A stretch of DNA of 62,482 bases, filler included, from Kipferlia bialata (lineage: Eukaryota), in NCBI GenBank assembly GCA_003568945.1. It is 3 parts of 3 records of this genome, joined end to end, with 100 filler letters (N's around TTAATTAATTAA, not from the genome) between each part and the next. Parts side by side here need not be neighbours in the genome. Positions count along the whole stretch, not along the records: positions 27,695 to 55,275 come from BDIP01000167.1; positions 55,376 to 62,482 come from BDIP01000213.1; 1 more part is not named here. One strand, given 5' to 3'. The position numbers were made by a program, and so were the translations under genes. Below, one piece after another: positions 28,717-61,969 of this stretch (within the stretch, counting starts at the first letter, position 1; each line of letters starts with the position of its first letter). The notes below the pieces were generated by a model, which saw only the letters and a list, made by a program, of their open reading frames with translations, searched no databases and was not told where the DNA came from.

Positions 28717-29294
28717 ATGCTGAGTGGTTCCAGTGTGCAGAAGGACTACGCTCGGTTCAAGGCCTCCCTGGCCACACAGCCTGTAAGGGTGTCCCTGTAC
28801 AAGCTGCTAGTGGCCACACACTCCTTTGTCAGGTTTGACAAGGTGAGGGTTATGTTGAGTTATATATAGCTAGGGATACAATTATTCTTCAACTGCGTAC
28901 AATCGCGCTATGTGAGCATTATGTACCGTTACTGATGGGAGTGGGCGCTCTCCCCCCCCTATCTCTCGACTGTACATTCCGTGTATACACGCTACACTCT
29001 CTCCCCTCCCCTCTCCCCCCCCCAGCCCATCTCTAAGTCGCTCACTCTCTCTCTCTCTAATAGGGAGAGATATTCCATGTATATACTCCCCTCTCACCCC
29101 CCAGACCTTCCCCCACAGGACTGCCTCCACTAATTCTCTCTCTATTTAACAGTCATTCCATGTATATAGTCTGACTCCCAGACCTTCCCCCACAAGACTG
29201 CCTCTGCTGAGTCTGGTGTGCACACCAGAGACTCCCTGTATATGCTGTCATTCAGACCATTCCTGGATGTGGCAAAGGCACAGGTATGTGTATA

Positions 29295-29328
<34 letters not shown>

Positions 29329-30855
29329 CATTGGCTCAGTAACTATTGTATATGCATGCTGTCATTCAGACCATTCCTCGGTGTGGCAAAGGCACAGGTA
29401 TATATATATATATATATATATTGTGAGGACCTGCAGTTCGTGTTCTCAAACACATGACTGTCTGTGGAGTCCTCACTATGTATACGTATATAGATGTGGC
29501 AAAGACCCAGGTACAGTTAGTGTATATATAGTACTGTCTTGCCAGCAGTCTCCCATACTCCTATATTGTATACTTGCTAACCCAGGGCCGCCTCCCCTCC
29601 CACGAGCACTACTTCATAACTATTACTATATATGTATATATAGCTTAGGTGATATATGATTAGGTTCTCCCTTGTATACATGTTTACATACTTACCCCAG
29701 GGCCTCCTCCCCTCCCACGAGCACTACTTCCTTGCCCCATCCTCCTTCCCCCTCCTCCCTGCCCCACCCCTCGGGGTCAGGGACGTGCCCCACCTGGCAC
29801 CACTCCCTCCCGGTATGTATATGAATATAATATGTATATATACATATATGTTTATATATACATATACATTTGAAGGTGAGGGACGTGCCCCACCTGGCAC
29901 CCCTGCCACCTGGTACACGCACATATATATATACCTTCACTATGTTTATTAATACTAATATATATATTTATATATATATATGAAGGTGAGGGACGTGCCC
30001 CACCTGCCACCTGGTATGCATTGGTCTCTCTCTGTTTGTCTCTCTCTCTTGTATAATAATACATAATTGTTTAGGGTTTTCTCGTCCCTTGTCAGTCTCC
30101 CGCGGATACTTCCCCCCCTCCATCTCTCTCTGACCCCTAGGATTCGAGAGCCAGAAGGGAGATCGCTATCTGGAGGTAGGTCATGTGTATGTATACTGCC
30201 CATCATTGGGTGCACAGTCTCAGTCACTGCGTCTAGGGCGTTCCCTCCTCTCTCTCTGTATCATCCTCTCTCTCTATACTTTCATATACCTGTAATGTAT
30301 CTATCCCTGTATGTCTATACCTGTACTGACCCCTCAGTTTGTGGAGCACCTGGTGGACATCCTGGACCAGATAGTGCACTGCACAGGTATGATGGCACAC
30401 TCATCCACTTGTGACCAATACTATATACGACTTGTGTATAGTATTGGGAGTATTCAGATATATCCACCCCCAGGTCTGTTCTACGGGATGGAGATTGGTG
30501 CACTCTCATATACACAGTTGTCTCTACATGTGTGTAAAGGCATACATCTATGTTTATACCATCCCACTCCAGGTCTGTTCTACGGCATGGAGATGGGTGA
30601 CAGTGTCACTCTAACGAGACTGGAGGATGACACACCGGATAGGGACCCAGGTATATAGATACATATATATATAGTAAGCGTTGGTATTTGATATTTGGGA
30701 CCCAGGTATATATATGTATTTATAGATATTGAATACATTTGCCCATGTATCTATGACCCTAACTGTCAGGCCACTCCGACCGCATTGAGGTCACGACCGA
30801 GTGGATCTGTGCCCACATTGTGCAATGCCTATCCCTAGCCTTATCACCTGCTAGG

Positions 30856-30902
<47 letters not shown>

Positions 30903-33900
30903 GGTATATACTATGCATGTATATATGTGTCTGTGCCCACATTGTGCAGTGTCTGTCACTGGCCTTGTCCCCTGCTAGGTATGTATCAATATGTATATAT
31001 ATTGTATATACGGTATATACTATGTATATATGTGTCTGTGCCCACATTGTGCAGTGCCTATCACTGGCACTGTCACCTGCTAGGTATGTGTGTATGCGCT
31101 AGTTATGAGTATTCAATAACATATCTCTGTATTTTCTTTTCGACATATACACTCACATCCAGACTTGAGGCAGCCGGTGTCTCCTGGCCCACAGACAACC
31201 TTAGGACCAGTTCTGTCCCAGCCAGACTGCTGGAACTGGCCTCACTCCTGATGGACAGACCATCCTCCATAGCCAGGGGCATACTCGAGTGCATATCGAA
31301 GGTATGTGGATTGGTTTATGTACAGTATATGTAATGTATACTAGAGCAATGGGTATACTCACCCCAGGTCTTGATGGCCCGTCCCTCCCTGGTGACAGCG
31401 GTGTACAGGGCAGACCAGGTGGGGATATAGAGATATATGGAGCATACTATATATATATGTACATATCCATATTATAGCAGTGTACAGGGCAGAAAAGGTA
31501 AACAGTGGCATATTGAGATACATGTTTGTATATACACATATACGTATGCTTTGATATATATCATACTGTATACACCACTTACCCCAGGCCCCCCGCGGCA
31601 CCACCCTGTCCCACCTAGTGGACACCTGTGTCACACAGTGCAGACAAGGGACAGAGGGAGAGGGAGAGGGGGAGACAGGGCAGGGCATCAGTGGACAGGT
31701 GTTGGCCACGCTGATAGGCCTACTGGTACAGACAGGTGGGTGTAGTACATACCAATATATACAATTCTATATTGGTGACTGTACAGGCATTTCTTTTGAC
31801 ACTTATTCACCCCCAGCGTCTCTGAGCCAGTCCCTGGGTGGTGACACCTACGAGGGTGTGGGTGTGTTTGACCTATCCTCCATAGACGATGCGGCATTGA
31901 TAGAGGTAGTCAGTGATAGACTCAGGGCCAGTAGGGAGGAGAGGGAGAGGCAGGGGGAGACTGAGGGTGTTGTGGCTGAGACTGAGTGTACAGCGACTGA
32001 GGACTCCCACCCCACCCAGGCCTCTGTCTCTAGGGTGTCTGTGTCTATGTCTGTGTCAGAGGGAGGGTTGGTACCAACACACCCTGTCCCCACTGTGTCA
32101 CTCCCCTCATCTGCACCTGTGCCCCTGTCACAGACACCAGTCTGCCTCAGTAACGCACTCGCCATGCTGCTATACCAGGTATGGGTATAGATATACACTA
32201 TACCAAGTATACTATGTATATGTTTATGTATACTATACATGCAGCACTGACCCCAGGGCCTGCAGTCTCCCACCGCCCTAGGTGGCAGGGACCTGGACAC
32301 ATCCAGTCTAGTGGGTATCATGCAGTATGCAGAGGGGCTGGACGGGAGAGTAGTAGAGGGAGAGAGAGAGAAGAGGGAGAAGAGCTGGGTGGGCACCATT
32401 GCGAGTGTGCTCGCATCCATTGTACCTGTATCCACTTTCTCCCTCGCCTTTCTCTCCCCCTCTGCGCCCTCTGCCCCTCTCTCTCTCCTACCCGTGGGTG
32501 CCCTGTACAGAGACAGGCTCATACCTGACCTCGAGGCCCACCCCACCCTGTCCCACCTGTACACCACCACATGCCTCCAGATGAGTGTCGACAGGCTCCT
32601 GCTCTGCCCCTCTGACCCCATCGCACATGTCCTAGAGGTGGCACTCGCACACTCACCCAACGTGGACCTGAGGTTAGTGTCATCTATCGGACTCAATTAG
32701 TATATATATGCCTTAACGACCCTATCTGACCCCAGGCTACTGCTCCCCCTCCTGTCCCAGCCTGCCCCAGCCATGTGCTTTGTCAGGGTGCTGCTATACT
32801 CTGTGGGCAATGCACCGGACAGGACACCCTTCATGTCAGTCATAGTGCAGATGGCAGAGTTTGTCAAGCAGGTGAGTGTAAACATGCTTGATATATGACT
32901 CTGTATACAAGTATTAAGTGAGGTGTCACTTGTAATATTCTAGATGGCAGAGTTTGAAAGATGAAGCCAACGTGAATATGGTTGGTCACCTGAGTATTGC
33001 GTGGCCGGTGTGCTTTTAGAGTTTTAGGACATACTCCTTTTGACCATTATTCCCTGCTAGTGACCTTCTCTGCTAGAAGATGTATGCATTGAGAAATACC
33101 ATTTGTGTGTCATCTTAGTCTTGTCCTCACCCTCAGGCCCTTCTCCTAGCCTCCACTGACAGAAGTGAGGAGAGCACCCTAGACAAGGCGGTGTGGCTAC
33201 CAGAGACAACATCGGTAGAGACAGAGACAGAGGCTGAGACTGAGCGAGAGACTGAGACCCCCTCCCCACCCCCTGTCCCCTTCACCTTCACCACTGTTGT
33301 GGCCGGTGTGCTCAGTGTACTGTCACCCCTCCTGTCCAAGGAGCACACGCCGCAGTCAGCAGACATTGACATCAGGTATGAGTGACTTCACTGTAAATAT
33401 ATAGATATACATATATCCATTACAATATTGGGTTCCAAATATGTATATATATATAGTAATTGATCTTCTGACCCCAGGGATGTGCTTGATGTGGTTGGTG
33501 AGGCATTCACACTGTCACTGTCAGACCCGGAGAATGAGGTATATACGTGTACCGTACAGTATATGAGAGTGTCATTATATTGAATCTTATGTACACAGGC
33601 GCTACACTATGAATATTGTTATATAGTGTATGTTCATGTAATACAGACACCCCCAGATCCTGTCTGAGCGTAGGAAGATAGAGTGTGATATCAGTGTCTC
33701 TGTATGTATATAACACTGACCCCAGATCCTGTCTGAGAATGTCGGCCCCCTTGCCTCCCTCCTGGCCATAGCATCTAGCCACTCCAGACAGTGCATCACG
33801 GCACTGGTGATGGCACTCAGTGACACAGACCCGGACACAGGTATGTCTATATAACTAATATATAATGGTGTTTGCCTCTATATTCGTTATATGTTGTATA

Positions 33901-36900
33901 CACATCTCTTGTATGTCAGCACTGGTGGTGGCACTCAGTGACACAGACCCAGACACAGTTGGGGGTTAGTGTGTATATATAGTTTGTGTATGTCCATAGA
34001 TGGAGAGGTCTTGGTGTAGATTAATGTAATCCTTTACCATCAGACACCCCCGTGACCCCCACTTCCCGTCTCCTCATCACCCGGTCTCTGGCAGTGGCTC
34101 TCAGCCACTACAAGGTATACACACTATATCTTATATACCTCTAAGGATATGTTCATTTATATGTATGTGAGTACACGGTGTGTATTATTATGTCTCTGGC
34201 AGTGGCACTCAGTCACTACAAGGTATATATACTCCATTTAGGCTCTTTATTGTATACCCCAACCACTACCAGTTGGGTGTTGTATATGCATATGTATGTG
34301 TTACCAATCTTGGTCACTGGGAGTGGCTCTCAGTCACTGCAAGGTGGGTGTAGGTATTATACATGATGTATGTGGGATAATACTCTTACCCCTTACCCCC
34401 AGGGCCCCTTGAACATGACTGAGCGCGAGATATCTATCCTGTGCGCGCACTTCAGACCCAATGACCTGGACGAAGTATACGAGGGAGAGGGAGAGACAGA
34501 GGGAGAGGGTGCTGATGAGGTAGAGGCCCAGGATGTTGAGAGCCCCACTGCTGTTGAGGAGGAAGAGGAGGTTGAGAATCCAGAGACCCCAGGTGATGAG
34601 ACAGTAACTGAGGCTGCAACTGCTGTAGATGAGTCAGAGGTGGTTGAGGAAGAAGAGGCTGTGGGGACCCCTGGTTCAGTGGAGAGTGGTGATGAGAAGA
34701 AAGTGGTTGCTGTAGAGCCTGCTGATACCACCACAGTGCCTGTGGTTGAGACCGAGACGCAGAGGATCCCGGCACCCCCCTCCCCCGCTGAGGGTTCCCC
34801 CTCCACCCCCCCACCCCCGACTCCCCTCACCCCCACCCACCCCTTGCACTCCGACACCCTTAACGGAGTGGTGTGGCTGGCCATAGCTGCCCTGCTGAAG
34901 AAGGTGTCCCCTGCCACCTATGACTACAGGCAGATGATAGGGGCCACTGGTCTCCATGTACTTGTGGACATCCTCTTTGCCAATGACACTCTGACCGAGG
35001 AGTACACTGACTTCCTGTTACATAGGGCACTGTGCAGAGACAAGGAGGGGTCTCTACGCCTATGCCAGCCTGAGGCACTCTCCCTGCTACTCTTCGTGGC
35101 TGGGCAGAGACCAGACTCTATGGGACCAGGTGTCCTAGGGTACATTGTGCACAGTCTGTACAACCTGCTGGTGAGTGGGTGTGTGCCTGGCTCCATGACA
35201 GGTAGTGCCACACACGGGTATGCTGTGGACCCCTCAGCTGCAGGTGTCATGTGTGCATGTGTGTGCAGCCACCCACCCACACTCACTGCTCTCACTGGGT
35301 TACTGGTCTCTCTAGCCGACAACCCCACCCTGCTCTCTCTTGTGTCCAAGTGTGTGACACAGGTCGTGGCATCATTCACCGACGTGTCCCACTTCAACGT
35401 GTACATTGCATCTCTAGACACTGATGCTATGGGTGCTGTGGTGGGTATCATCAATGCACAGCTCAAGAGAACAGCACCGGGGGGGACTGCACATGTGGTG
35501 CCTCTGCTAGTGGGTGAGGACGCAGCCCTGTCACACACCGTGTACAACATACAGGTTAGTATGTGATATACCTATACTGTACTCTCCTACACTTCTCATC
35601 CTCACCCCAGGTACCCAGGCTGACCACCCCCCGCAAGAGTGGGGGTGTCGATGTGGTGCAGCTACCCCTCTACGTGGCCATGTGGGTGTGTGCCCTTCCC
35701 CCTGCCTCCTACACTGAGGGAGCATCCTCTCTCCTCCTATCCCTCAGGGGAGAGAACTATGAGACGTCGGTGTGGCTGAGGTACAGTGCCACCAAGGTGG
35801 CCCCACAGTCACTGACACCACCCCTAGCTAGGCCTTCTAGTCTAGTTGTCTGTGGGTACAAGAGCAACGGCATGACGCATGCCTATGAGTATGCCCTACC
35901 CATAGAACATGGCCAGTGGTCCCAGATATCAGTCTCACTCTCTGGACAGTGTGTAGTGTCTGTCGATGGGTCTGTACCCCTACTGCCCCTGACACCCCCT
36001 GCACTTGTGGGGTCACCCACCTCTGAGGGGTCTGAGGGCATGTCCCCTGCCACAGCACCCCCTAGTGGTGTAGCACCTGTCTCTGTGCCCCAGCTGGCCA
36101 TGGATCCAGAGGCCACGCTGAGGTAGAGTGCATATAGTATATATTAGTGGGATGCAAGTACTAATATTTTACATAGTAATACACCTACACTGGCTATGGA
36201 CCCCAGGGCAACACTGGGGTAGGGGGCTATGTATATATATATATCCATATAGCACTACTTGTATGGTACTGATACTACACTTAGGTGCAGTGATATACCA
36301 GTAATAGGGAATGGTAATCAGTATTAACAACCAGGATCCTGCCCCACATGCGCCCTGGGACCACATCCCCAGAGGCCATGCCCCATGCATCACCCACATC
36401 CACTGGTGACAGACAGGGTACTGACACCCCCCTCCCCCTTACACCCTTCTGTGGCATGGTGGGACCTGTCACAACGTCTACCAATGTGCACCTGGACCCA
36501 TCCATGCAGGTAAGGGCACCATATCTATATGTATATATATATGAATGTACTGAGGAACACTATACTACCACTTGAATATACATACATCCACCAATGTGCA
36601 CCTGGACCCATCGATGCAGGTACCGGGATCTCTTTCTCTCCCTCCACATGTTATACGATTCTTCTCCTGACCCAGACATGTACCATGTATCTATATGCAT
36701 CTGTGTTCCCACCCTGACCCCCAGGCCACCCAGCAACAGGTGCTGCAGGCCATAGCCAAGGAGGCAAAGAGGGGGAGGTGCGGTTGCAAACCTATATTGT
36801 ATTGCGTTATATATATCACTACTAGGAGGCAAAGAGGGGGAGGTCGGCACATGAATATACAGTTGTGTAGATTTCTTTTATAAGTGTGGACATACATATC

Positions 36901-37188
36901 ACTGCAAGGAGGCAAAGAGAGGGGGAGGTGCGGATATATAGATTCACTATTATACATTGGTATGCATGGTATATGCCATTCTAATGTATATTATGTCTTT
37001 GCGATATTTACCCTTAGGGCCAGCCGTGGGTCTGTGACCTACCCCAGTGGTGTCTCCTTCCAGCTCCAGATAGGCACCGTGGGACTCATGTCCCCAGACG
37101 AGAGTGTCAATGCAACGTGTAGGCTCATGGTGCCCATAGTCGGTGGGGCCAGGTGAGAGATACATATATATATATATATCATATATAT

Positions 37189-37254
<66 letters not shown>

Positions 37255-39944
37255 CAGACACATGGTGCCCACAGTCGGTGGGGCCAGGTGAGAGATACAT
37301 GCGTATATGTATAGACACATGTTAGTATGGGTGGGGGCTAGGATATTACACTCGATGTTTTCGGTGCTGTACTATACTCTCGTTCCATCATCAATCAATT
37401 GTGTATACCTAACAACCAGACCCAAGAAGAGAGGCCCACCATCCCCGGCCCGTGTGGTATCCACACACGCAGTCCATCCGTCACCCGCACTCAGGTATGT
37501 GCATAACTTACTATCTTCTTCGCTATAGGCATGCATTATTACCCCGGGGTCGTGTTTACCCCAGGGTGATGCTGCAGTGGGATGGCAACACATTGTATAT
37601 GATGTACTCTATATACTATTAATATGTTTACTATACTATACTGTATATATATACACATCTCACCCCAGGGTGATGCTGCAGTGGGCCGTGTCCGTGGGCA
37701 TAGCAGCAGACGTGGCACACACACCCTCTCTCTCCACAGGGGGGTCTAGAGGCAAGGCCCTAGCCTCCCTCCCAGCCTCAGTTTCCACCCTACTTAGGGG
37801 GTCTACACCCCTAACCAACACCCTTCGCACACTGTCGCGTACACCCGGTGCTCTACCACCCCTGGCTGCCCAGCTCTTCCTGCTCTCCCTACCTCCCCTT
37901 GCCCACACTGAGACTGAACTGGCCTCTCTTCTCAAGGGGATAGATGCCATGCCACCCTCACCTGTTGTGGACATACAGAGACTGTCCCTGTCGGTGCCAT
38001 ATGCAGAGAGAGTCAGGGAGCTCATGAAGGCTGTGTTGTTAGGGGTTAAGGTACGTAATTATATCTCTATGCACTATTATGTATGGATGTGTTACCTTAG
38101 GACCCTGTTTGTGCCGATGTCACCAAATCTTTCTCTCTCTCTCGTTCTCTCTCTCTATGTCTCATACCTACACAGTGTATGCCTTACTTCCAGGACCCCC
38201 TTGCTGCCGATGCCACCCTCAAGGTGTGTGTGCACTGCATGACAGACGGGGTCGGGGCACAGCTCAAGGGGCCAGGTAACAGTATCGTGTATATACATAC
38301 CGATATACATATATCGTAACTATTCAAAGTGTATATATTACATATTATGTATATCCACAGACGGGGTCGGGGCGCAGCTCAAGGGGCCAGGTGGGATGTA
38401 TATTGAATTGTCTATGTCTCATACATGTGGAGCATGAAGATACCCATATGTGTGACTCTGTGACCTCTCTCCATGTTCTGCCCCCCCCGCCCCCCCCTCA
38501 CCCCCAGCCAAGGAGTCTTGACTACCCTACTACATCTATACTGTATATGGTACTGGAGATATGTCTCACGCTACCCATCTCTTCCTCTCACCCCCAGCCA
38601 AGGAGTCCATACTGTATATATACTACATATATATTTATACTACATATATATATATTCTATATCTACCCACCAAACCCCTCACCTCCCAGCCAAGGAGTCC
38701 CCCATGTGGGATGCCCTGTGTGCACTCATAGCAAGGTAAGTTACAATTACAGGATCTGTAGTATATGAGCACTAATTGCAAAGTGAGGGGGGTGGTGTCA
38801 GTGTGCCGGTACCAGTTCAGTAATGTGTATAGGACCATGTACACTTTGACACTCATACGCAGGTCTGGCACCCTTGCCTCCGCCCTCAACTGTCTAGTCA
38901 TGTAGAATGAGTGTATATATATATATATATATAGGTATATATTTGACACTCTCATTCAGGTCTGGGACCCTAGCCTCTGCCCTCAACTGTCTTGTGCTCC
39001 TGTCACCCCCACCCGTGTCAGTCATCCCATTCTGCAGACCCACAGTGCCCACAGGTATAAACTTATATACGTATATACATATATATATACGTGTGCCCAC
39101 AGGTGGGTTACTGGTACATACGTAGGCCATAATTGTACAGGGTCTAATATATGATAATATGTGCCCTCACTCTACTCCACATCCCTCAGGTCCTGTCTCT
39201 GATGACATCTCCAGTCTCTAAAGAGATATGACTCTCTTTGGATATTACTACCCTGACTATTGTTAATGCATCCCCTCCTCACCCCCCAGGCCCTGTCTCT
39301 GATGACCCCCGTACTGACAGTGACTCAGACCCTGCACCTTCCAGAGGCATACTGAGTGGGGTATTGAGGCTACTGACCACAGTCATACCCATAGTGTGTG
39401 ACGCAGTCAAGACAGAGTATGAGGTGGGGCATGTGTACAGTCATACCTCTCTATAAGTGCTATATTATCTTCTCTGGAGGCATTTGCTTCTGTATATATC
39501 TCTCTGCTAACCCCCAGAAGTCCTTTGGCGCTGCTGCCCTTGCCAAGTTCCAGCGCTCTCCCTCTCTGGTACAGGCTGTACTGGATGTCATCAGAACATC
39601 AAACTACATCCCATTCCTAGGTGGGTGTATATGTACTGGATGTCATCAGAACATCAAACTACATCCCATTCCTAGGTGGGTGTATATGTGTATATGATAT
39701 CCCTATATATATTAATATTCATTTGTGGTATGTAATTATGTACTGGATGTCATCAGAACATCAAACTACATCCCATTCCTAGGTATATGTGTAATATCAA
39801 TATGCATATATGTATGTGAGTTCAATATTGTGTCCTCACTCAGGTGTGTCAGGGTTTAGATGTCAGTATGTCATTCAGCAGTATATATTTACCGCAGGCT
39901 CTGCCCTTGTCTCCTCACCCTCTGTGTATATCTATACGTATACC

Positions 39945-39975
<31 letters not shown>

Positions 39976-48775: not shown

Positions 48776-48814
<39 letters not shown>

Positions 48815-51800
48815 ACAGACAAATAAGGAGGTGGGTGGGGGGTATATATAGAGAGAGAGAGAGAGACAGAGAGGGAGAGAGATGCCACGGACATGTCCAA
48901 TACATAAGTGAGTTAACATCCGTACATATACTCTCTTTCCTCCCTTTCACCCCAGGGTTCCAAGATCCGCCTCTCCCTGCTGTCCTTGGGCAAGGTACTG
49001 GAACAGCTGAAGAGGGGGGAGAAGGGGAGACCCGTGTTCAGAGAGTCTCTGCTGACCCGTCTGCTCCAGCCCCACCTGTCGCCAGAGTCAAGTGAGTGAT
49101 GCATGCCTCTCTCCCTCTCTCTCTCTCTCCCTCTCCCTCCCTCACCCCAGAGATGGCCTCCACCTGCGTCATGTTCCTCAATGTGCACGGACACCCCAAG
49201 CACCACTCAAGCACAAAGGTGGGCAGGGGTATGGTGATATGCTATGTTATCAGTGTTGTATATTTGGTGTATTGTATATATGTATATACACCCACCCCCA
49301 GGCTGCCATGAAACTGGCCTCTGTGTCACAAGAGATCAGACTCAAGGGAACGGTGGCTAGGTGTGTTATAGATGTGTATTGGGATGGTTAGAGAGGCACC
49401 TTACTTTATCAATCCCCCCCCCACCCCTACCCACCCCAGGGTCACCTCTGTGAGGCCTGATGGATACCCAACCACAGCCAGAAGGACCAGGAGGGTGCCA
49501 GGTATGGGTGTATCTGTGGTGTAGTATATACATATACTCCCCCCACCCACCCCAGGCTCCCGTCTCCGCACTGGCAGGGCCTCTGTGCGTCGGTCTGCCT
49601 ATGTCAGTAGGAGGGAGAGAGAGATGGCAACGCCATCGCAGGTGGGATACCATACTCCTGTTTTGGGATTTCCATCTATTGTATTAATACACTTAACGCT
49701 GCAGTTGATAGTCCCTGAATAGTATCTATAAGAGTTATTCTGGATACTGGCATGAGTATGTAACAGTATATGTCTCACCCCAGCCCCAGCACCGCCTGGC
49801 TCTAGGGGGCATGACCCTCGACACAGAGGGGGAGGGCACTCCCTTCCAGGGGCCCGGGAGTCCTCTCCTGGACAACAAGATCAGGTGCGTACTTGGCTGA
49901 ATACTCGATATACTGTACTCAATCTATCCTTCCCTCCTTCTGTCTTTCTTTCCGTTTCTATCTCCCCCCCCCCTCTGACCCCCAGCCAGGCCTCTGAGGT
50001 GGCCAGGTCCAGACTGGCACACGGATACGGGCCAGGTACTGCACCGATACATATGCATAGACTGTGTTTACCTTCCTTCCTCACCCCCAGACGTGTCCCC
50101 TTCGGCCCCCCATGGCATGGACATAGATATGGATATGGACCCTGACAGCCAGATGGTGCAGATGACAGTGGGTGAGGGAACCATTCATTATATATATATA
50201 CATCGAATACCTGTGTATGTAGTGTGTATATATGTATGCACCCACCCCAGGTGAGCTCCGTACCATCCACACCCAGTTCCAGGACACCAGCAGACAGTGG
50301 CTGATGGACAGAGAGCGGAGGTGGGGTGTGCTATTCATAACTATGGGAATTGTGGAGTTTATTACTGGAATGAATTTCGGTGTATATTGCTGCATCGCTT
50401 ACACCCAGCGAGGAGGCCATTCGCAAGGAGATGTGTGAGCAGTTTGACGCATACATGACACAGGCCATGCACGAGGGTGGGTTATTTGTGTATTTATTTA
50501 TATACTTTTATATACAAATTAGTATCTATGTGTGTGTGTGTGTATTGAGAGAGAGAGGGGGAGTTATACATGGCAGAGGGTGTAGTTTGTATACATGTGT
50601 ATATATCCCCCCCCACCCCAGAGCAGGAGTACTCCGGGGCCATCATAGAGAACCTCAGGAAGGAGCTCTCGGACATGACCCTGCTGTACACTAAGGTATA
50701 GTAATACATAGAGAGAGGGTCAGTGGCGCGAATATATACAACGTCTCACACAGGCCGACCTCCACGAGACCCTAATGAGACAGGAGAGGGACAAGATGGC
50801 CAGCCAGGAGGTGGGTGGTGTATATGAATATGAGTGTATACATCTTTAGGAAGAGAGCGCTGAGTGAGTGGAGCACACTGGACAGTCAGTGTATGTGTAT
50901 ATTACAGAAGACCCCCATGTCCCTCCCCCCAGGCCACCCTGCGGCATGGCATGGACATACTGCAGCAGAGCGTGACATCTCTACAGGCGCAGCGGAGGGA
51001 GGTGGGGGACTGTGTGCTCATACATACAAATACATCCGTACATGAATTCTATCTCCCCTCTTATGCCAGACCCGGTCTGCCCTGTACACCACCGCCCAGG
51101 GCATGGAGACATGTGCAGACAGGGGGTGCGCACAGAAGGTATTGACACTCTGAATATGTGTGAGTAGTTCATCGAGTATTCAGAACCTTCAGCGTATGCA
51201 TTCACCTAGATACCCGTGTGTACCACTCTCCTCTCACCCCTCAGATATCTGCCCTGGAGATGTCCCTGACCCAGTTGAGGGAGGAGCTAGACACAGTGGA
51301 ACAGGAGAGACAGGCAGAGAGAGAGAGGGCGGAGGCAGAGGTCAGTGGGCATAGTCACTATGCAGCATAGTGAACCAATGGATATATACATATACCCAAT
51401 GTACCGTCTGGCTGTCTGTATCCGTTACATCCCTCTCTCTCTCTGCACCCTTATCCCTAGGCTGCCTCTGCCCTTATCCTCCACACCCAACAGATGGAGG
51501 AGCTGAAGGATGGCTACACATCACACATAGAGGTACAGGGTAGCCATGTACATTTATCTGAATGGGTGTGTACACTATTATTAGATATGCGTCTCACCGT
51601 CTAGACCCTTGAGAGAGAGTCCCAGGCAGAGAGAGAGAGAGCACTCGACGCCCAGGCACAGTATGAGGAGGCCCTGGTACGTCTCTCCCTCTTACTCTCC
51701 CTCTCTCTCCTCACACCCCTAATGTCAGGCCGAGCTAGAGAGAGAGCACGAGGCCGAGGTCGAGGAGCTCCAGACAGGGTATGATGAGGAGGTGGCAGAG

Positions 51801-54800
51801 AGGGAGAGAGAGTACAGTGAGGAGAGGGAGTCTTTGCAGAGAGAGAGAGAGGCTGAGAGGGATGAGCTGCTAGAAGTTGCCAGACTGGAGAGAGAGAGAC
51901 TGGTATCAGAGGCAGACAGGGAGAGAGAGAGGGCCGAGGATGGGGAGAGAGAGATAGAGGCACTGAGGGTGTCGAGAGGCAGAGACACCCAGGACTCTGC
52001 TGCTCTGAGGGAGAGAGAGAGAGATCTTGCGTCTCTTAGGACTCAGTATGAGGCTATGGTAGAGGATTGCGAGAGGGAGAGGGAGGAGAGGCAGAGAGAG
52101 AGAGAGGGCAAGGAGGATGCTGTCCAGGCCCTGTCTGCCATGAGGGTGGAGTGTGCAAGGCTCGAGGTATGGGGCCACTCATCATGTGACTGTATATATA
52201 TATATACGTATACCTCTGTTTTGCTTGGTATATACCCCCCTGCCCACCCCAGGATGCTGTCGCTGCGGCATGTGACGAGAAGGAGGAGGCACAGGCACAG
52301 CAGCAGGTACGATGTATTATACACATAGTAGGGTTCATAATACTTTCCCAGTCCCATTTGTCCTCATGTATCCACTTGCATACACCCACCCCCAGAATGC
52401 CGAGGAGTCTCTATCCATACTGACTGAACTGGCAAAGAGACAGGTATGGACATACACGTAATTCACAGTGTTTGACATACTCTTCCACTCAGCAAACCTC
52501 CCAATCTTCTAGTTCCCTCTCATCCTCTAACGAGTCAGGGTCGTGTGACAGCTGCCGAGGCCCCGTCTGTGGAGTGTGACATGCTACAGACAGAGCTAGA
52601 CACAGTCAACGATGACCTGATGGCCACCACAGAGCTACTGGCACAGGTGGGTGTGTATGTATTTCTATGTATATGTGGACAGGTGTCGATATATATAGTA
52701 GCGACACGTGGTTACACGGACCGTCCCATTCCCGGTTATGTATGTATATATAGGAGTATTACCCCCCTCACCCGCCAGGCCACTGCGGAGAGGGACTCTG
52801 CCCTTGCCAGGGTGGGTGCCAAGGAGAGAGAGGTGGCAGAGGCATGGGCAGAGAGAGAGGTGCTGACACAGGCCCTGGAGAGAGAGAGAGAGAGGGTGGG
52901 TGCACTCAGAGCAGACATCGCAAGAGAGGAGAGGGAGAGAGAGAGAGAAAGGGAGGATGCACAGAGGCAGGAGAGACAGGCCCAGAGAGAGAGGGAGAGA
53001 GGTACAGTAGAACATGGATACAGTGCATGGAATACTGACTCTCCACTATTTCATCCATCTCTCTCTCTCTTAACCCCAGCTGCAGAGCGTGTCAAGGGTC
53101 TACAGACACAGGTTGAGAGGGAGAGAGACCGGGCAGAGAGGGAGAGAGAGGGCGAGGGCGAGGCCTCTGCCAGGTGCAGAGACCTGGAGGCACAGGTGGA
53201 CGCACTCCAGAGAGAGGTGTGTGCATATATATATATATATATCTATATGCGAACATTGCACGCACTATACACTCTCTTTACCTCTCTACCCCCAGGTACA
53301 GTCTCTGGGTAGGGCCGCTGTCAAGAGGGAGGGACAGATGGCCAAGGGTGGAGACGGGGAGGTATACATGATATGGGGTATATCGAATGTGTTTTCAGTC
53401 TCTCTCTTCCCCCTCACCCTAGGGTTCCGACCCCTCTCTAGTCCAGTCTCTGAGACAGGAGGTCGCCAGGGTACGGTGTGGTCATTGATAGTGTTGTGTC
53501 CTTGTGCATTCCTCTTTCTATGAGCACTCTGCACCGGCACTCACTCCCTATCCCCATTGCCTCACCCCAGCTCTCTGCCCTGTCTGCCTCTTGGTCTGAC
53601 CAGGAGAGGCGCCTGCTGGGGCAGCTCAAGCAGACACAGGTACATCGGGGTATATGCGTATATGTGTGTGTGTGCTCTGATTGCCATATACATATATATA
53701 CGCCAACCCTAGGAGGAGCTGTCTGCCCAGCAGGCCATGTCCAGACGGGCACTGGCCAGAGGGGCATTACTGGGGACACCTAGGTGTGTGTGGGTATATC
53801 AATACATAAAGAGAGAGAGAGTGATGGGGGGAGAGAGAGAGGGAGAGGTGGCACTAGCCATGGTGGTGGGAAGGAATATACTACAGCCAACGTGAAAGAA
53901 ATACACCTCCGACCCCAGGTCCACGCAGATGAAGAGACCCGCTGTGTCCAGCAGTGCAGTGAGGACATTCGGTGGGTGGTACAGTGTATACACACACACA
54001 CACACCGTCTTTCCCTGTCTCTCACCCCAGCCCCCCCTCAGATGACGACACCACTAGTACGGGGAGGGCTCAACCCCACACCCGTTGCCCCCCCCATCCC
54101 CCCCACCCCCACCTCCTACGGCACCCCTGTCTCTATGTTCGAGGGTGCCGACAGTGAGTCTGATGCGTCTGAGTCCATGCCCCCCATCACACCCATGCAC
54201 CCACCTAGGAGGCAGAGGCAGAGGCAGAGGCAGAGGATGATGACCTCAGACTCTGACAGTGACAGTGAGAGTGACAGTGACTCTGATGCCGATGATGTCG
54301 TGATTGAGGCTGATGATGATGTGTACTCACCCGTGGTGCAGAGACAGAGACCCCAGAGAGGGAGGGGGAGAGTGGCATACACCGCACCCAAGAGACACAG
54401 CACCAGAGCGGCGGCTCAGAAGGCCAACGAGGTATGACACATATGTATGTGCATATATACTGGATACCTCACATATCCTCTCCCTCTCTCCCTCCCCTCA
54501 CCCCTCACCCCTCACCCCCCAGAGGCTGGAGGAGGCTCTTGTAGGCCACCCCCGTGCACACACATCAGATGCCACTGACCCTGTGTATGAGGGATCCCCC
54601 ATACCCGTGGCAGTCAGGGGGGGCAGGGGTACCAAGGCCAAGACCAGGACCAGGACCAGGGGCAGACCGAGGAGGGCAGGGCTCTCAACCAGTAGGTGGG
54701 TCGGATATGTATGCATGTACACACACACACATTTCTTGTAACTGACCCTCCAGGTTCACCAACCGTGTGCACACCCCACCCACCTCTCGGGACATGATAT

Positions 54801-54907
54801 CAGCAGCCCATATCGATAGGGAGAGTGAGAGTGAGGGGGAGGAGGAGGAGTCCCCTGAGGTGGTGGTCAGACCCAGGAGGCAGAGGCGGAGGGGGGTGCA
54901 CCACTAG
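46586..54907 (+). CDS. N-terminal-motor kinesin (kinesin-6-like, divergent) with long coiled-coil stalk and disordered S/T-P-rich tail
   Basis: KILCRVRP, FTFTQVL, P-loop MAYGITGSGKTHTIQ|GTKKDEGILPR, ISVLELYCNSCYDLL, switch I NLHSSR|SHLV, switch II LFDLAGSE and PVFRESLLTRLLQ. E/R-rich coiled-coil exons lie at about 50250-53780. Ends ...RRQRRRGVHH with TAG at 54905-54907. Confidence 0.92.
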
Positions 54908-55450: not shown

Positions 55451-55695
55451 GTAGAGCCGTTGCTCTCAAGAGGATCAGACTAGAGTCCTCAGATGAGGTG
55501 TGTTCGCAAACATTTTTATATATGTGTGTGTGTATTCCTTACATACACATATCATAGACTATAATAATACATACTTCTATGTATATACTGAACATCCACA
55601 CATGTGTTGATATATACTCGAGGTCTCTCATGACGTCTCTCTCTCTCTCTCTCTCTATACCCCCTTCTGTTCACCCCCAGGGTGTCCCATCCACA

Positions 55696-55732
<37 letters not shown>

Positions 55733-55804
55733 ACCCTTTTCTCACCCCCAGGGTGTCCCATCCACAGCCATCAGGGAGATTGCACTGCTCAAGGTATGGA
55801 TGTG

Positions 55805-55850
<46 letters not shown>

Positions 55851-56269
55851 TTTCACTGCTCAAGGTATGCCCCTGCTCTGTATCTGCATATATATATATA
55901 CATTTATGCATATACGCATATACGCATGTAGACACACATTTATATATACATCATATGGAGTGATAGGACACTCATCTTCTCACCTTATGTGTGTGTGGTA
56001 TTGTGTGGGTGTATGTATCTCACCCCAGCGGTTGAAGCACCCCAACATCAGTATCAGTATCAGTATCAGTATCAGCATATAGTGAATGTAGTTATATATA
56101 ATAAGGTATGTATATATATATTATGGTATGGTATGTATCTCACCCCAGGAGTTGAAGCACCCCAACATCGTGGACCTGCTGGAGGTGAGATATATATGTG
56201 TATAAATATGTATATATGTGTGTGATGTATTTATGTATATATATATATGTGATGTATATATATTAACCC

Positions 56270-56304
<35 letters not shown>

Positions 56305-57959
56305 TGGGCCTGCTGGAGGTGAGATATATAAGTGTGTATTAATATGTGATGTATTCACACACATTATATTTGCATGTACCTACTGGAGAGATCACATTAC
56401 ATAGTGTATCTATTCCATGTGTTCTTATACACACTCTCACCCCCAGGTCGTGCACTCTGAGGACTAACTCTGACCTCTGCAAATATGACATATATATATA
56501 CTAACGTGATACTCTATATGAATACTCTAACTGCCTCACAGGTATTATAGATATCAATAATTGTTTATATACATGTACTCTTATACTATATATATATATA
56601 ATTATTAGTATGTTACTCTGAGCCCCAGGTCGTGCACTCTGAGGACAAGCTGACCCTGGTGTTTGAGTTTGTGGACCAGGACCTCAAGGTTCATGTTTTC
56701 TCTCTCCCCCTCTATTTCTCTTTCTCTCTCCCTCTACACCCTTATTGCAGGTGTTGATGGATGCCAAGCACACATTCTCTCTCTCTCTCCCNNNNNNNNN
56801 NNNNNNNNNNNNNNNNNNNNNNNNNNNNNNNNNNNNNNNNNNNNNNNNNNNNNNNNNNNNNNNNNNNNNNNNNNNNNNNNNNNNNNNNNNNNNNNNNNNN
56901 NNNNNNNNNNNNNNNNNNNNNNNNNNNNNNNNNNNNNNNNNNNNNNNNNNNNNNNNNNNNNNNNNNNNNNNNNNNNNNNNNNNNNNNNNNNNNNNNNNNN
57001 NNNNNNNNNNNNNNNNNNNNNNNNNNNNNNNNNNNNNNNNNNNNNNNNNNNNNNNNNNNNNNNNNNNNNNNNNNNNNNNNNNNNNNNNNNNNNNNNNNNN
57101 NNNNNNNNNNNNNNNNNNNNNNNNNNNNNNNNNNNNNNNNNNNNNNNNNNNNNNNNNNNNNNNNNNNNNNNNNNNNNNNNNNNNNNNNNNNNNNNNNNNN
57201 NNNNNNNNNNNNNNNNNNNNNNNNNNNNNNNNNNNNNNNNNNNNNNNNNNNNNNNNNNNNNNNNNNNNNNNNNNNNNNNNNNNNNNNNNNNNNNNNNNNN
57301 NNNNNNNNNNNNNNNNNNNNNNNNNNNNNNNNNNNNNNNNNNNNNNNNNNNNNNNNNNNNNNNNNNNNNNNNNNNNNNNNNNNNNNNNNNNNNNNNNNNN
57401 NNNNNNNNNNNNNNNNNNNNNNNNNNNNNNNNNNNNNNNNNNNNNNNNNNNNNNNNNNNNNNNNNNNNNNNNNNNNNNNNNNNNNNNNNNNNNNNNNNNN
57501 NNNNNNNNNNNNNNNNNNNNNNNNNNNNNNNNNNNNNNNNNNNNNNNNNNNNNNNNNNNNNNNNNNNNNNNNNNNNNNNNNNNNNNNNNNNNNNNNNNNN
57601 NNNNNNNNNNNNNNNNNNNNNNNNNNNNNNNNNNNNNNNNNNNNNNNNNNNNNNNNNNNNNNNNNNNNNNNNNNNNNTTATTATATATCTCTCTCCCTCT
57701 GCACCCTTATTGCAGGTGTTGATGGATGCCAACCATGGCAGGTTGAGCAGCAGGCTGGTCAAGAGCCTCATGTACCAACTCCTGAGGTATGAAGGAGATG
57801 AAATTATAAGATATACATATGTAGATATATTTGAATTTATGTACTATATATAGTACCTATCAATATATATATAGACAATGGCAGCAGGCTGGTCAAGAGC
57901 CTCATGTACCAACTCCACAGGTATATTCACACACACTATATTGTATATGCCTCTCTCTC

Positions 57960-57996
<37 letters not shown>

Positions 57997-58055
57997 ACAC
58001 CCTTATTACATGTCTCTTACCTCAGGGGCACTGCCTACTGTCACAACAGAAGATC

Positions 58056-58107
<52 letters not shown>

Positions 58108-61098
58108 ACACCCTTATATCCCAGGGGCACTGCCTACTGTCACAACAGACGGGTGCTGCACAGAGACCTCAAGCCTCAGGTTCATATATCAGTATGCTCT
58201 ATAATATATACTATATAGTACAGGGTATATATAGATATAGTACATGATATATAAACGTATGTCATCAATGGAAGGGTATCAGTATCAGTATCTAATAGTT
58301 GTATAGTATAGTACAATGAGTACCTAGCAACCATGTATATATAGTGCACAGTATATGTAGTTTACGGATATCAGCAGACGGGTGCTGCTGATATACTCTT
58401 CACTATACTCTATATATAGGTATACTTACAGACAGCTCTGGTGTTAATAGCTGCTTTTCTCTCTCTCACTCTCTCTCTCCCTACACCCTCATTGTCAGAA
58501 CCTCCTCATCTCTGCCAAGGGAGAGCTCAAGCTGATCTTTCTCTCTCTCTCTCTCTCTCTCTCCCTGGACCCTTATTGTCAGAACCTGCTCATCTCTGCC
58601 AAGGGGGAGCTCAAGCTGGCAGACTTTGGACTGGCCAGGTATACAAACACATATATACATATGGGTTCAGATATGATATATACATAGAAATATGCAATGG
58701 TAGTATCAAGCTGGCAGACTTTGGACTGGCCAGGTATATGAGTACATATATCCATATATACATATGGGTTCAGATATGATATATATATATTTATATATAA
58801 TGAATGTGGCAAGCTGGCAGACTTTGGACTGGCAAGGTATGAGTATAGTATATAAGAATATTACATATGTAAGATAGTATGAATACATGCTATGCTGCTG
58901 ATACTCACCCCAGGGCCTTTGGCATCCCAGTCTCAGGTCCAGTATTCTTTACCAGATAGTATCTGTATATATACTCATACTTATTTACCCACGATACTCA
59001 CCCCAGGGCCTTTGGCATCCCAGTCCGGTCATACACACACGAGGTTTGTTATAGTACATAGAAATTTATATATGTATAAATATAACCGGTACAGCGCTAT
59101 ATGTATACTAAACATATACTATTATATATATGTATGTATACTACTGTGTTTAGTCCGGTCATACACACCCGAGGTATGTGCACAGTGCTGCTATACACTC
59201 TAGTTACCGTATGGTTTAGTGCTACAGATTGTAAACATGATATCCTTCGGACTCTTAGGTTGAGTTGTATATACTTATACTACCCCTAGTGTATAATATA
59301 CCCCTTGGCTTCGAAATAGAGAATTCTACTCCCTGGTATGTATTGAATGTACTATATCCCATCTGACCTCTAGGTTGTGACACTCTGGTACAGGGCCCCA
59401 GAGGTGCTGCTAGGTATAGCCACTGTGCTTATATATATATTATAGTATTGTAATACAGACTCGGTTCCATATAAGATCTATACTAGCTGTCACATCTGTT
59501 AATATGGACACTCTCCGCTCTCTCTCTCCCCCTCTACACCCTTATATCAAGGATCTCGTACCTATGGCACCGCTGTGGATATATGGAGCATCGGGTGCAT
59601 ATTCGCAGAGTGTGTCATGGGGAGGCCCCTGTTCCCAGGTATTTACTCTGGTATATACATATAGTATATATACCTATATAGTATTCATTGTGTATATTCA
59701 ATGTGCCATACATCGGTATATATATAAATATATTCGCAGAGTGTGTCATGGGGAGACCCCTCTTTCCAGGTGGGTATATATGAATTCATATACATATACC
59801 GTCATATACATATAGGTGTACACAATATTCAATACATATATATATATACTCATTTTCACTTATATATATATATATATGTTCGCAGAGTGTGTGATGGGGA
59901 GGCCCCTCTTTCCAGGTATGCATTGGTATAGATAGATATATTCACTATACTATATATATAGTACAATGTATATATATGTGTGTGTATGTATATGCGCAGG
60001 GTGTGTGATGGGGACCCCTGTTCCCAGGTATATACTATGATATATACTATACATATAGTATATATACATATACCTATATATCTGAATTTATGACACAACT
60101 AATTCCTGTATACACTTATGAGTCAACATTGGTATATGTATAGCATAAGCTCTGTGTGGTATTGTGACATATATATATATAAATATATATATATGCATAT
60201 ATATATGTATGTGTATGTATTACCCTTATTCCAGGCAAGAGTGAGAGGGATGAGCTCATGACAACATATCTCTGTGCAATGCTATTCCTTATACATATAT
60301 GTATATGTTTCTATCACATATGTATACCCTATTGTATATGTACCTAACACCAGGCAAGAGTGAGAGGGATGAGCTCATGAGGATATTCAAGCTGATGGGG
60401 ACACCAGATGCATCGGTCTGGCCAGGCATGTATTGAATGTATATATATATATACTACTATGCTATATATACTACTATATTATATACTATATACTACTGTG
60501 CTATATATACATATATATAGCAGATTGTATATATACTTTCTCTCTACACCCTTTAGTCACGCTGATGGGGACACCAGACGCATCGGTGTGGCCAGGTATA
60601 TAGTATATACTAATATACTATATACTAATATGCTATATATACACAAATGTCATAAAATATATATACTATATATACTCTCTCTCTCTCCCTCTAGCCCCTT
60701 ATACCAGGCATCTCCCAGCTGCCAGAGTACCAGTCCAACTACCCAGTGTTTGTGTGCAGGCCAGGTATACATATTATCATGTGTGTATCAATAATAGTAT
60801 ATAGGTATGTATAATTGTATAGACACAAATAATGATGTGTATACCATACCAGTGCTTGTGTGCAGACCAGGTATGTTGGATGCTTACTATATATATATGC
60901 ATACCTGTATGTATGTGCTATGATGGAATACATTATATACTGGTCTCCTCTTGTATCAAGCGTCCCTCCTCTTACCCCTGTATCTCTCTCTCTGTCTGTC
61001 TCTCTCCCTTCTCCCCTTACCCCCAGTCAGCAGCTACCTGCCTGACCTGGGTGACAGTGGCAGGGACCTCTTCTTGAGGTAATGGTTTATATACAGTG

Positions 61099-61132
<34 letters not shown>

Positions 61133-61969
61133 ACATAACTATATATATATATATCTGCCTGACCTGGGTGACAGTGGCAGGGACCTCTTCTTGAGGTACT
61201 TCTCTCTCTCTCTATATCTATATGAATGTATGTATGTATACATACTTGTATGCCTCTCTATCTATATATGTGCCTGACCTGGTAGGGACCTGTTCCTCAG
61301 GTATTGAAGTATATATATATATACAGATATATAAGTAAATACATTATTGATAGTCTATATATATGGGTGTGTGTGTATGGATGTGGGTGACAGTGGTAGG
61401 GACCTCTTCCTCAGCTAGTCTCCATATTCCAATGTCATCTACACGTATCCACAGGATACAATTAGTATATATCCAACCCTTAGGATGATCTCTCTCTCTC
61501 TCTATACATATACACCATATTTCTAACCCTCAGGATGATGGAGTATGACCCTGCCAAGAGGATCTCTCTCTCTCTCTCTCTCTCCTTCTCTCTCCGTATA
61601 TACATATATACTATATATCTTATACATATATATCTTATACCCAGGATGATGGAGTATGACCCTGCCAAGAGGATCAGTGCCAGGGCAGCACTCAACCACC
61701 CATTCTTCGGTAAGTATGTATTTACGTATTAATATGAATGGATAGTAGGTATATAGAGATCTATTGTTGACTGTGTATAGTGTTGTGTCCATTAGTGTGT
61801 ATATGGAGTGCCTCACCCTCAGATGACTTCGTCAGTATATATACTATAATATTACGGTATTAACGTATGTATATGTGTGTGGAGGATCTATGCTTGACTG
61901 TGCATAGTGTATAGTGGGTGTACATGATCTGTCTCACCCTCAGATGACCTCGTCAACAAGCCAGAATAG
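55451..61969 (+). CDS. cdc2: PSTAIRE cyclin-dependent kinase (CDK1/CDK2/cdc2 family), 5' partial, 14 visible exons
   Basis: Exons 55451-55497 ([13 protein letters not shown]), 55752-55793 ([14 protein letters not shown]), 56149-56184, 56629-56688, 57716-57786, 58125-58179 (HRDLKPQ), 58583-58638 (NLL...ADFGLAR), 59007-59043 ([12 protein letters not shown]), 59374-59413 ([13 protein letters not shown]), 59552-59638, 60354-60425, 60708-60764, 61027-61078, 61645-61709 ([13 protein letters not shown]), plus a final short exon 61944-61969 carrying the stop. Confidence 0.96.
55676..61835 (+). repeat. Intronic half-exon duplicates flanking almost every CDK exon
   Basis: Acceptor-side copies start near 55681, 56029, 56447, 56751, 58026, 58499, 58914, 60235, 61534 and 61823. 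Donor-side copies end near 55864, 56318, 57920, 58733, 58835, 59173, 59769, 59915, 60027, 60595, 60870, 61195, 61300 and 61414. Confidence 0.92.
56792..57677. other. Scaffold gap inside a CDK intron
   Basis: N run. The flanking exons (DQDLK|VLMDAN) join in frame, so no exon appears to be missing. Confidence 0.9.

Follow-up and report, generated by a model that had tools for sequence, protein, structure and literature searches.

The window analysed here is a stretch of 62,482 nucleotides of DNA (filler included) from Kipferlia bialata (GCA_003568945.1). Two of its genes carry numerous short copies of their own exon ends within introns, and a kinesin gene serves as an internal control.

28717..43393, plus strand: host gene 1; 40 exons, open reading frame of 2413 aa, copies in 20/39 introns
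46586..54907, plus strand: kinesin gene, internal control; adjoins gene 1, model identical to a deposited K. bialata protein
55451..61970, plus strand: host gene 2, a PSTAIRE-type CDK; 15 exons modelled, N gap inside, Pkinase match, copies in 11/13 introns

The model of gene 1 matches an RNA contig at three junctions and two loose ends. The label "ARM gene", given to it in an earlier note on this DNA, proved unsupported, as none of six exon pieces matched Pfam. Moreover, in a protein search with one gene 1 exon, none of 6239 candidates passed (proteins of more than 2000 aa lay outside this search).

Exon-End Copies and Their Distribution

Copies were sought by an ungapped scan, splice-anchored and frame-blind, which covered 158 introns. 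These belong to 8 gene models, representing 7 genes with the CDK split by the gap. Excluded as unreliable were the 11-14 kb gene and, from the model at 20-27 kb, its first two exons. The strict cut-off was a score of at least 12, a value reached by 0 of 4000 random exon-intron pairings. A gapped scan, which returned 64 matches including ragged ends and about 5 unanchored ones, was set aside for counts.

The frame-blind scan revealed 52 copies of 12-49 nt, spread over 33 introns. These introns are concentrated in gene 1 and the CDK gene (31/52 versus 2/106 in all others, p=1e-16), and at the strict threshold none of the 40 kinesin introns carries a copy. Both exon boundaries are duplicated, with 31 donor-type and 21 acceptor-type copies, and the splice dinucleotide is retained in 48 of the 52 (GT in 28/31 and AG in 20/21). 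All copies are anchored at the splice site as tandem direct repeats across the exon-intron boundary, none being inverted, and an affected exon end has one to three of them. At a score of at least 9, polarity is outward in 59 cases versus 2 reversed, the latter both at chance level. At 8 of the 10 multi-copy exon ends, the free end is common within 3 nt. The intron flank past the GT or AG exceeds the 95th percentile of random pairs in 7/31 donor and 4/21 acceptor copies. An exploratory analysis of a 10-nt periodicity in copy length (6 tests) gave p=0.05 for donor and p=0.70 for acceptor copies.

Copies at Individual Loci

The functional exon 7 and copies at several exon ends of gene 1 are as follows.

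29356..29397, plus strand: donor-type copy; 1 synonymous difference and D>G, intron flank near-identical
29875..30013, plus strand: two donor-type copies of the exon 3 end; differences 5/5 synonymous in the first, 9 nt deleted in the second
30474..30500, plus strand: acceptor-type copy of the exon 6 start; 1 synonymous, 1 replacement
30770..30854, plus strand: functional exon 7; codons are those in the RNA contig, with 0 other letters
30930..30978, plus strand: donor-type copy 1 of the exon 7 end; 7 synonymous differences, GT retained, skipped in RNA
31035..31083, plus strand: donor-type copy 2 of the exon 7 end; 6 synonymous nt, free end of copy 1, skipped in RNA
34192..34343, plus strand: two donor-type copies; near 2 synonymous, far 2 synonymous and 2 replacements
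38863..38901, plus strand: acceptor-type copy; 5 synonymous differences
39632..39782, plus strand: two donor-type copies; both match the exon exactly over 44 nt
39898..40038, plus strand: two acceptor-type copies; common free end, 4S/1N and 3S/1N (synonymous/replacement)

The two exon 7 copies have a common junction and are 5 silent changes apart. In the CDK gene, several exons are flanked by copies as well.

58499..58836, plus strand: exon 58583-58638 with acceptor copy 58499-58534 and donor copies 58706-58733 and 58810-58836; halves overlap by 8 nt
58914..59173, plus strand: exon 59007-59043, with an acceptor copy at 58914-58932 and a donor copy (H>P) at 59152-59173; 4-nt overlap between the halves
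59730..59769, plus strand: donor copy 1 of exon 59552-59638; 3 synonymous
59876..59915, plus strand: donor copy 2 of the same exon; 3 synonymous
59987..60027, plus strand: donor copy 3 of the same exon; decayed, two replacements and a 2-nt deletion
61155..61414, plus strand: three donor copies; one identical over 41 nt, one with a 9-nt deletion, one without GT

Exon 59552-59638 and its three donor copies form a four-gamete mosaic, in which copy 3 completes the pattern. Besides this mosaic (59730-60027), there is the identical copy pair at 39632/39739, yet most units are diverged. Radical replacements affect conserved CDK motifs in some copies (D>G, H>P, L>H), and deletions and loss of GT also occur among the copies.

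The earlier note had listed loci at which every difference from the exon was synonymous. A codon-by-codon check reproduced this at 30808 (7/7 and 6/6 nt), 29776 (5/5), 58499 and 41390 (2/2 each); at 38863, the 5/5 are also correct and are followed by one replacement at a ragged end. Other entries held in part. At 34085, the first copy is 2/2 synonymous, but the second has 2 replacements that had been omitted. At 59602, 3/3 was found twice, but the second of these copies has ATA>ATG at its free end, and the decayed third copy had been left out; at 60391, the 2/2 synonymous copy runs on into an omitted K>T. The replacement minority mentioned in the same note is present, with D>G at 29380 and 56308, I>T at 37272 and H>P at 59169.

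Whole-Exon and Alternative-Exon Readings

Decayed whole-exon duplicates were rejected as a source, as four arrangements would be expected but polarity is almost exclusively outward. A GT/AG pair able to splice a copy in exists in 1/52 copies, with very poor scores; a strong acceptor lies near the free end of 0/31 donor copies, and a strong donor near that of 0/21 acceptor copies. Mutually exclusive exons keep both splice sites and are translated. The copies resemble such tandem exon duplicates in being intronic and diverged at silent sites, but they are half-exons of fixed outward polarity, and their codons are absent from one RNA contig. An alternative-exon reading was rejected on the grounds of this polarity, the lack of a second splice site and decay. 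A single whole-exon cassette inserted into an old exon was attractive, with half-exons meeting within -6 to +8 nt in 5/7 short exons, but this complementarity has p=0.07-0.14.

Excess of Silent Differences

Over the 52 copies, 64 synonymous and 27 replacement differences from the exon were counted (pS 0.171, pN 0.024), and individual copies form a graded series with 0 to 7 changes. The resulting pN/pS is 0.14 (bootstrap about 0.08-0.26), with 0/5000 resamples at or above 0.5. It amounts to 0.11-0.21 across four scan settings (p=7e-9 versus 0.5) and to 0.19 when one copy per exon end is counted. Transition bias was rejected as the cause, the ratio still being at most 0.20 under strong bias. The dN/dS of about 1 that the earlier note had set against its claim is not the appropriate null: about 0.5 is expected when a copy evolves neutrally next to an exon under constraint. 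Within the 158 introns, the observation of the earlier note holds, more strongly than it was put there.

Copy-private changes at 9 multi-copy ends comprise 18 synonymous and 7 replacement changes (p=1e-6 versus 25%). Private replacements number 2 in near copies versus 5 in far ones, and in several examples the far copy is more decayed. The 6 copies with flank identity of at least 90% look neutral (2S/4N), in comparison with 62S/23N in the remaining 46 (p=0.06; p=0.06-0.28 for splits by flank class). Judging from sequence, the ratio and the copy-private changes support the earlier proposal that the copies derive from sequence formerly under coding selection.

Same-chromosome tandem duplication followed by neutral decay, combined with biased picking of loci in the earlier note, is a very unlikely explanation and is largely refuted in the window. 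Although it also predicts polarity and skipping and fits the identical copies and the shared-flank minority, the frame-blind ratio is far from 0.5, and the copy-private changes are mostly silent.

DNA and RNA Contigs at the Exon 7 Locus

Read-derived contigs cover one locus, the exon 7 region of gene 1. In a separate DNA assembly from run X1, exon 7, copy 1 and copy 2 occur at depths of 441, 400 and 454 with 0 differences, one contig running from copy 1 into the beginning of copy 2 and another joining copy 2 to the next exon. This confirms the presence of the copies on DNA at this locus. An assembly artefact, in which alleles or strains were concatenated at TA repeats, could appeal to the TA tract 30849-30910, which no contig bridges, and to the fact that X1, informative at one locus only, may be the window's own sample. 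The even depth and linkage in the separate assembly make it extremely improbable, and the copies are half-exons, whereas alleles are not.

Run X2 is taken as RNA, since its contig skips a GT..AG intron; such contigs drop rare forms. In the region covered (one locus, one contig), it contains only exon codons, with 0 other letters, and skips 3/3 copies. Exon 5 is spliced to the later acceptor of exon 6 (loose end at 30570) and not to the copy at 30474..30500. The earlier assumption that the copies are untranslated thus agrees with the single transcript examined at this locus. A second version of exon 7 at a likeness of at least 85% was absent from the DNA run at that locus, and metagenome scans for a second allele or strain confirmed 0/182 and 0/266 pattern matches, at 0 loci.

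Direct selection on the copies, entering the reading frame through a minor or stage-specific transcript (non-canonical processing) or through DNA swapping, would account for the silent excess and for the retained splice sites. In addition, 19 of the 31 donor copies match the true site in score, and a rare transcript could be missed in contigs from one locus. We nevertheless consider it improbable. The RNA contig skips the three copies that it covers, hidden splice pairs are practically lacking, and radical replacements in CDK motifs, deletions and lost GT occur among the copies; furthermore, silent swaps yield no new protein. In a toy simulation, same-molecule models gave ratios of 0.41-0.74 (5 settings, 3 replicates each), and swapping between repeats on one molecule, one of three options in the earlier note, cannot bring the ratio below about 0.4. 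Non-canonical processing, another of these options, and the idea of a dedicated archiving system are both unsupported, given the near lack of hidden splice pairs and the radical CDK replacements. A working archive, in which exon ends captured from other haplotypes are stacked behind the exon and swapped back into frame (in DNA or in a stage-specific transcript) often enough for selection to maintain their coding compatibility, is of similarly low probability.

Proposed Capture of Allele Ends

Among the options of the earlier note, repair templated by a diverged allele fits best. We regard it as moderately probable that diverged alleles, the presumed source, take part in break repair or unequal exchange, by which a new exon end is installed while the end of the old allele stays in the intron. 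A break near an exon end would be repaired by invading the homologue; since introns differ between alleles, pairing would take place in the exon. Synthesis would then cross the splice site into the intron of that allele, and rejoining would be non-homologous or by microhomology (junction microhomology was inspected by eye only). As a result, the newcomer would become the exon end, and the old end, of less than 50 nt, would be displaced into the intron. A simple tandem duplication, with the exon later recombining between alleles, would lead to the same outcome. Later unequal exchange inside the short homology could stack further allele ends behind the same junction. Survivors would be limited to arrangements in which the intact exon owns the first donor and the last acceptor; therefore, the copies would point outward and be skipped. 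Differences between copy and exon would be allelic, at silent sites, with slight neutral decay since capture, and the silent diversity required of the gene pool would be about 0.1-0.2.

This reading is favoured by the low pN/pS, the mostly silent copy-private changes, the CDK mosaic, the common free ends and the scarcity of shared intron flanks. In the toy simulation, allele exchange or capture gave ratios of 0.10-0.21 at allele diversity of 0.09-0.25 (5 settings, 3 replicates each) and of 0.29-0.37 at low diversity (2 settings, 3 replicates each). K. bialata entries for repair and meiosis include Spo11, four Dmc1 and PolQ, while NHEJ is absent from metamonads and Rad51A from fornicates (PMC8516963). 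In hypervariable Schizophyllum, crossovers favour exons, according to the accessible text of PMC4209137.

Several points weigh against allele capture. The diversity needed lies at the top of the known range; it is unobserved in the data examined, and the allelic source is one that we infer, because no second allele or strain was found. The CDK mosaic could stem from conversion within one array. The split by flank class is not significant, and the half-exon complementarity predicted for a single break has p=0.07-0.14. Introns would have to turn over very rapidly to leave unrelated flanks beside an exon part that is identical over 41 nt, and the gene bias (31/52 versus 2/106 introns) is not accounted for.

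Alternatively, with the capture mechanism unchanged, the donor may have been a homeologue, a related species or a lost paralogue, after hybridisation or introgression and subsequent loss of heterozygosity. This would account for up to 7 changes in 49 nt without extreme standing diversity, as well as for the unrelated intron flanks. It seems unlikely, as three or four versions per exon end and the mosaic need more than two parents or much later mixing, the DNA run holds no second version (one locus), and divergence is graded.

Error-prone repair synthesis might instead write a mutated exon end and flank, silent versions surviving and the unmutated old end forming the copy. Within one lineage, and without a second allele, it would explain the silent differences, the scrambling of flanks and the silent changes private to single copies; PolQ is among the K. 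bialata entries. However, a pS of 0.17 would imply an error of about 17% per base per event, and we know of no polymerase that errs near this rate. The four-gamete pattern is not produced either, which leaves this explanation highly improbable.

Comparison with Known Systems

The earlier description of the copies as "undescribed" was overstated, since tandem copies of exon-intron boundaries have been published as amphioxus "mirage" minisatellites, found in Adh3, the globins BflGb6 and BflGb9, PGBD5 and TnC (PMC3087553, PMC3902484; accessible text). Mirages likewise occur at 5' and 3' ends with similar unit size; cryptic GT/AG are retained, splicing is undisturbed (in Kipferlia, one RNA contig), and unequal exchange has been proposed. 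Unlike mirages, whose units are 81-100% alike throughout, the Kipferlia copies show flank similarity above chance in 11/52. Moreover, 60% of the introns in two genes carry copies here, and the host is a fornicate protist. In the accessible text of PMC3087553, the word "synonymous" is absent, and no reading as fossil alleles is offered.

The 37-bp VNTR in intron 7 of human F7 is similar in that its first unit crosses the exon-intron boundary and downstream pseudo-donors are silent because the first donor is chosen; it differs in being a single locus of near-identical units, without silent-site divergence in the part of the source consulted (PMC1557585). Synthesis-dependent strand annealing duplications also resemble the copies, as DNA from the vicinity of a break, exons and splice sites among it, is captured during repair. 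They are not focused on splice junctions, and a diverged-allele template is not argued in the accessible text (PMC2671141).

Within open-licence papers, the literature search found no earlier description in Kipferlia and no silent-site excess in junction repeats. The main text of the K. bialata genome paper has no mention of "duplicat", "heterozyg" or "ploidy". The human CBS 844ins68 reportedly duplicates the intron 7/exon 8 junction, is acceptor-type and is skipped by splicing. Unlike the present copies, it is one polymorphic insertion in a low-diversity species. Conversion between insertion chromosomes and normal alleles has been proposed for it (PMC2630376, accessible text).

Implications

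Should the copies be fossil alleles, a single genome would record its own population and carry a sign of hidden recombination and very high diversity. The silent divergence between copy and exon would estimate allelic diversity at about 0.1-0.2, among the highest known. Replacement divergence would date each capture, and mosaics would reveal recombination. Outcrossing and gene pool size would become testable in a free-living fornicate with one published genome. The origin of mirages is called unclear in the accessible text of PMC3087553; pairing in exons, failing in diverged introns, would offer a mechanism, and it predicts mirages in hyperdiverse, intron-rich species. In practice, exon-end copies are a source of error for gene finders and for dN/dS-based screening for "functional" exons.

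Copies of Exon Ends in Introns

The presence of intronic copies of neighbouring exon ends in Kipferlia bialata, described in an earlier note, is confirmed. These copies are either donor-type (exon 3' end followed by GT) or acceptor-type (AG followed by exon start), and most lie in two genes:

28717-43393, plus strand: gene 1, 40 exons with a 2413-aa open frame
55451..61970, plus strand: gene 2, gene model of a PSTAIRE CDK

To avoid picking bias, every exon end was slid along its own intron, ungapped and frame-blind, across 158 introns of 8 gene models. At a score of at least 12, 52 copies of 12-49 nt were found in 33 of the 158 introns; random exon-intron pairings reached 12 in 0/4000 cases. 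Copy-bearing introns amount to 20/39 in gene 1, 11/13 in the CDK gene and 2/106 in the others (p=1e-16). TA tracts are longer in copy-bearing gene 1 introns (median 10 vs 6; p=0.002), which is an association only. A gapped, looser search also picked up decayed copies in two further genes and in one intron of the kinesin gene (48810-48905), the latter with two gapped, decayed donor copies below the strict threshold. On the minus strand, exon 119-183 has two acceptor copies in an advanced state of decay (280-312 and 473-496); one still encodes EIKCS where the exon has EIRCS. Another acceptor-type copy (13443-13460) lies upstream of exon 13520 in a predicted membrane-protein gene (11072-14200), which was left out of the copy counts.

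The gene-modelling method is supported by the 41-exon kinesin model, since it agrees with the known kinesin-like protein of K. bialata at 1431/1431 residues; this protein was the one match (100% identical) among 30 candidates in the exon search. The 'ARM' label given earlier to gene 1 is unsupported: none of six exon pieces searched had a Pfam match. One search, with proteins limited to 2000 aa, returned no homologue of the 2413-aa product. The predicted CDK model requires an AAG acceptor (59546-59551) and a GC donor (60426-60431).

Excess of Silent Differences

The 52 copies differ from their exons by 64 synonymous and 27 replacement changes (pS 0.171, pN 0.024), giving a pN/pS ratio of 0.14 (0.11-0.21 across four settings). 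Because a neutral copy mutates everywhere while its exon goes on gaining silent changes, the neutral ratio would be about 0.5, from which the observed value departs at p=7e-9. The ratio is 0.08-0.255 in a bootstrap over 42 exon ends, 0.19 with one copy per exon end (p=9e-5) and 0.20 when transition bias up to 8-fold is allowed; by gene, it is 0.14 (gene 1) and 0.16 (CDK). The earlier interpretation is supported in part. A codon-by-codon recheck reproduced the earlier codon counts almost exactly, and the accompanying lists of differences omitted a few replacements.

At nine ends with at least two copies, 18 of the copy-private changes are synonymous and 7 alter the amino acid (p=1e-6 against 25%); the branch of an older copy can partly contain exon history. 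Even so, the two donor copies of gene 1 exon 7 (30930..30978 and 31035..31083; exon 30770..30854) have one common junction, yet five silent differences separate them. Among one CDK exon and its three copies, two variable sites occur in each of the four possible combinations. Decay is visible in the copies as well: conserved CDK motifs carry D>G, H>P and L>H, and some copies have deletions or have lost GT. Six copies with a flank at least 90% like the exon's own carry 2 synonymous and 4 replacement differences and look neutral, and the remaining 46 carry 62 and 23; this split is as two origins would predict, though it is not significant (p=0.06-0.28). Overall, the quantified silent signal points to hidden recombination and hyperdiversity.

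Contigs at One Locus

The possibility that the assembly concatenated alleles was checked at one locus of gene 1 (30480-31320), on contigs, which drop rare forms. In contigs of the DNA run X1, which may be the window's own sample, depth is 441 at the exon, 400 from copy 1 into copy 2 and 454 from copy 2 into the next exon. This equal depth argues against such concatenation. The X1 contigs show no other letters at this locus, leave the TA tract at 30849-30910 unbridged and contain no other version of the exon at 85% likeness. A single contig of run X2, presumed RNA as it skips a GT..AG intron, has the exon's codons, leaves out the two donor copies and, of two acceptors available after exon 5, uses the later one.

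Anatomy and Polarity

At a score of at least 9, introns following their exons hold 34 copies of exon ends, and preceding introns hold 25 of exon starts; reversed hits number 2, at chance level, and inverted copies 0. With this outward polarity (34 + 25 vs 2), whole-exon duplicates in decay are ruled out. What fits is duplication across a splice site, kept only if the first donor and last acceptor are the intact exon's. None of the copies offers a second splice site that could be used. Free ends are common within 3 nt at 8/10 multi-copy ends, so that further copies derive from a founding junction. Likeness mostly ends at the splice site, and the flank exceeds the chance 95th percentile in 7/31 donor and 4/21 acceptor copies.

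In five short CDK exons (55752-60595), the acceptor copy before the exon and the donor copy after it together make up roughly the length of a complete exon (overlap -6 to +8 nt; p=0.07-0.14), as if a new exon had been placed inside a divided old one. Donor-copy lengths bunch near 20, 30, 40 and 50 nt (29356-61414; exploratory Rayleigh p=0.05), and acceptor copies do not.

Source of the Copies

The copies are likely exon ends of old alleles. A toy population model, run at 12 settings with 3 replicates, returned ratios of 0.41-0.74 for overwriting confined to a single molecule. When other alleles were exchanged or captured, the ratios were 0.10-0.21 at allele diversity 0.09-0.25 and 0.29-0.37 at 0.03. 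The same divergence pattern would result if a plain tandem duplication came first and the exon then recombined between alleles. A second allele was found neither in contigs at the one locus nor in metagenome scans, which is the chief weakness of the old-allele reading.

For origin from old alleles, diverged homologues would pair only in short exons, and repair synthesis would continue beyond the splice site into intron sequence of the other homologue. Unable to anneal to a leftover exon stub of <50 nt, the new strand would be rejoined by a non-homologous route, and the old end would stay behind in the intron. Further allele ends could then pile up by unequal exchange. Dmc1 is tolerant of mismatches. 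According to PMC8516963, K. bialata entries include Spo11, four Dmc1 and PolQ, NHEJ is absent from metamonads, and fornicates lost Rad51A. PMC4209137 describes crossovers preferring exons in a fungus with 14% parental divergence.

Known Systems

The Kipferlia copies behave like amphioxus 'mirages', in which (PMC3087553) both exon boundaries are tandemly copied with cryptic GT/AG, splicing is normal, copy number differs between haplotypes and the origin is called unclear; a word search of that paper did not find 'synonymous'. PGBD5 and TnC are further mirage genes (PMC3902484), and the human F7 VNTR shows why downstream donors remain silent (PMC1557585). Unlike mirages, which show whole-unit likeness, the Kipferlia copies fail this test. 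The structure is already known, here at unusual density, in a distant lineage and with a quantified signal. Searches of the literature, with few subscription papers covered, brought up no earlier description in Kipferlia and no report of a silent-site excess.

Make-Up of the Window

Identical 12-nt stop linkers lie inside the N runs at 27595-27694 and 55276-55375 (linkers at 27639 and 55320). They show three joined scaffolds, so the host genes are not neighbours and gene order across scaffolds is meaningless. About 6 kb (14300-20300) depart from the usual intron-rich gene pattern and include imperfect short 12-nt repeats near 19620-19700; this region is possibly mobile-element or intergenic DNA.
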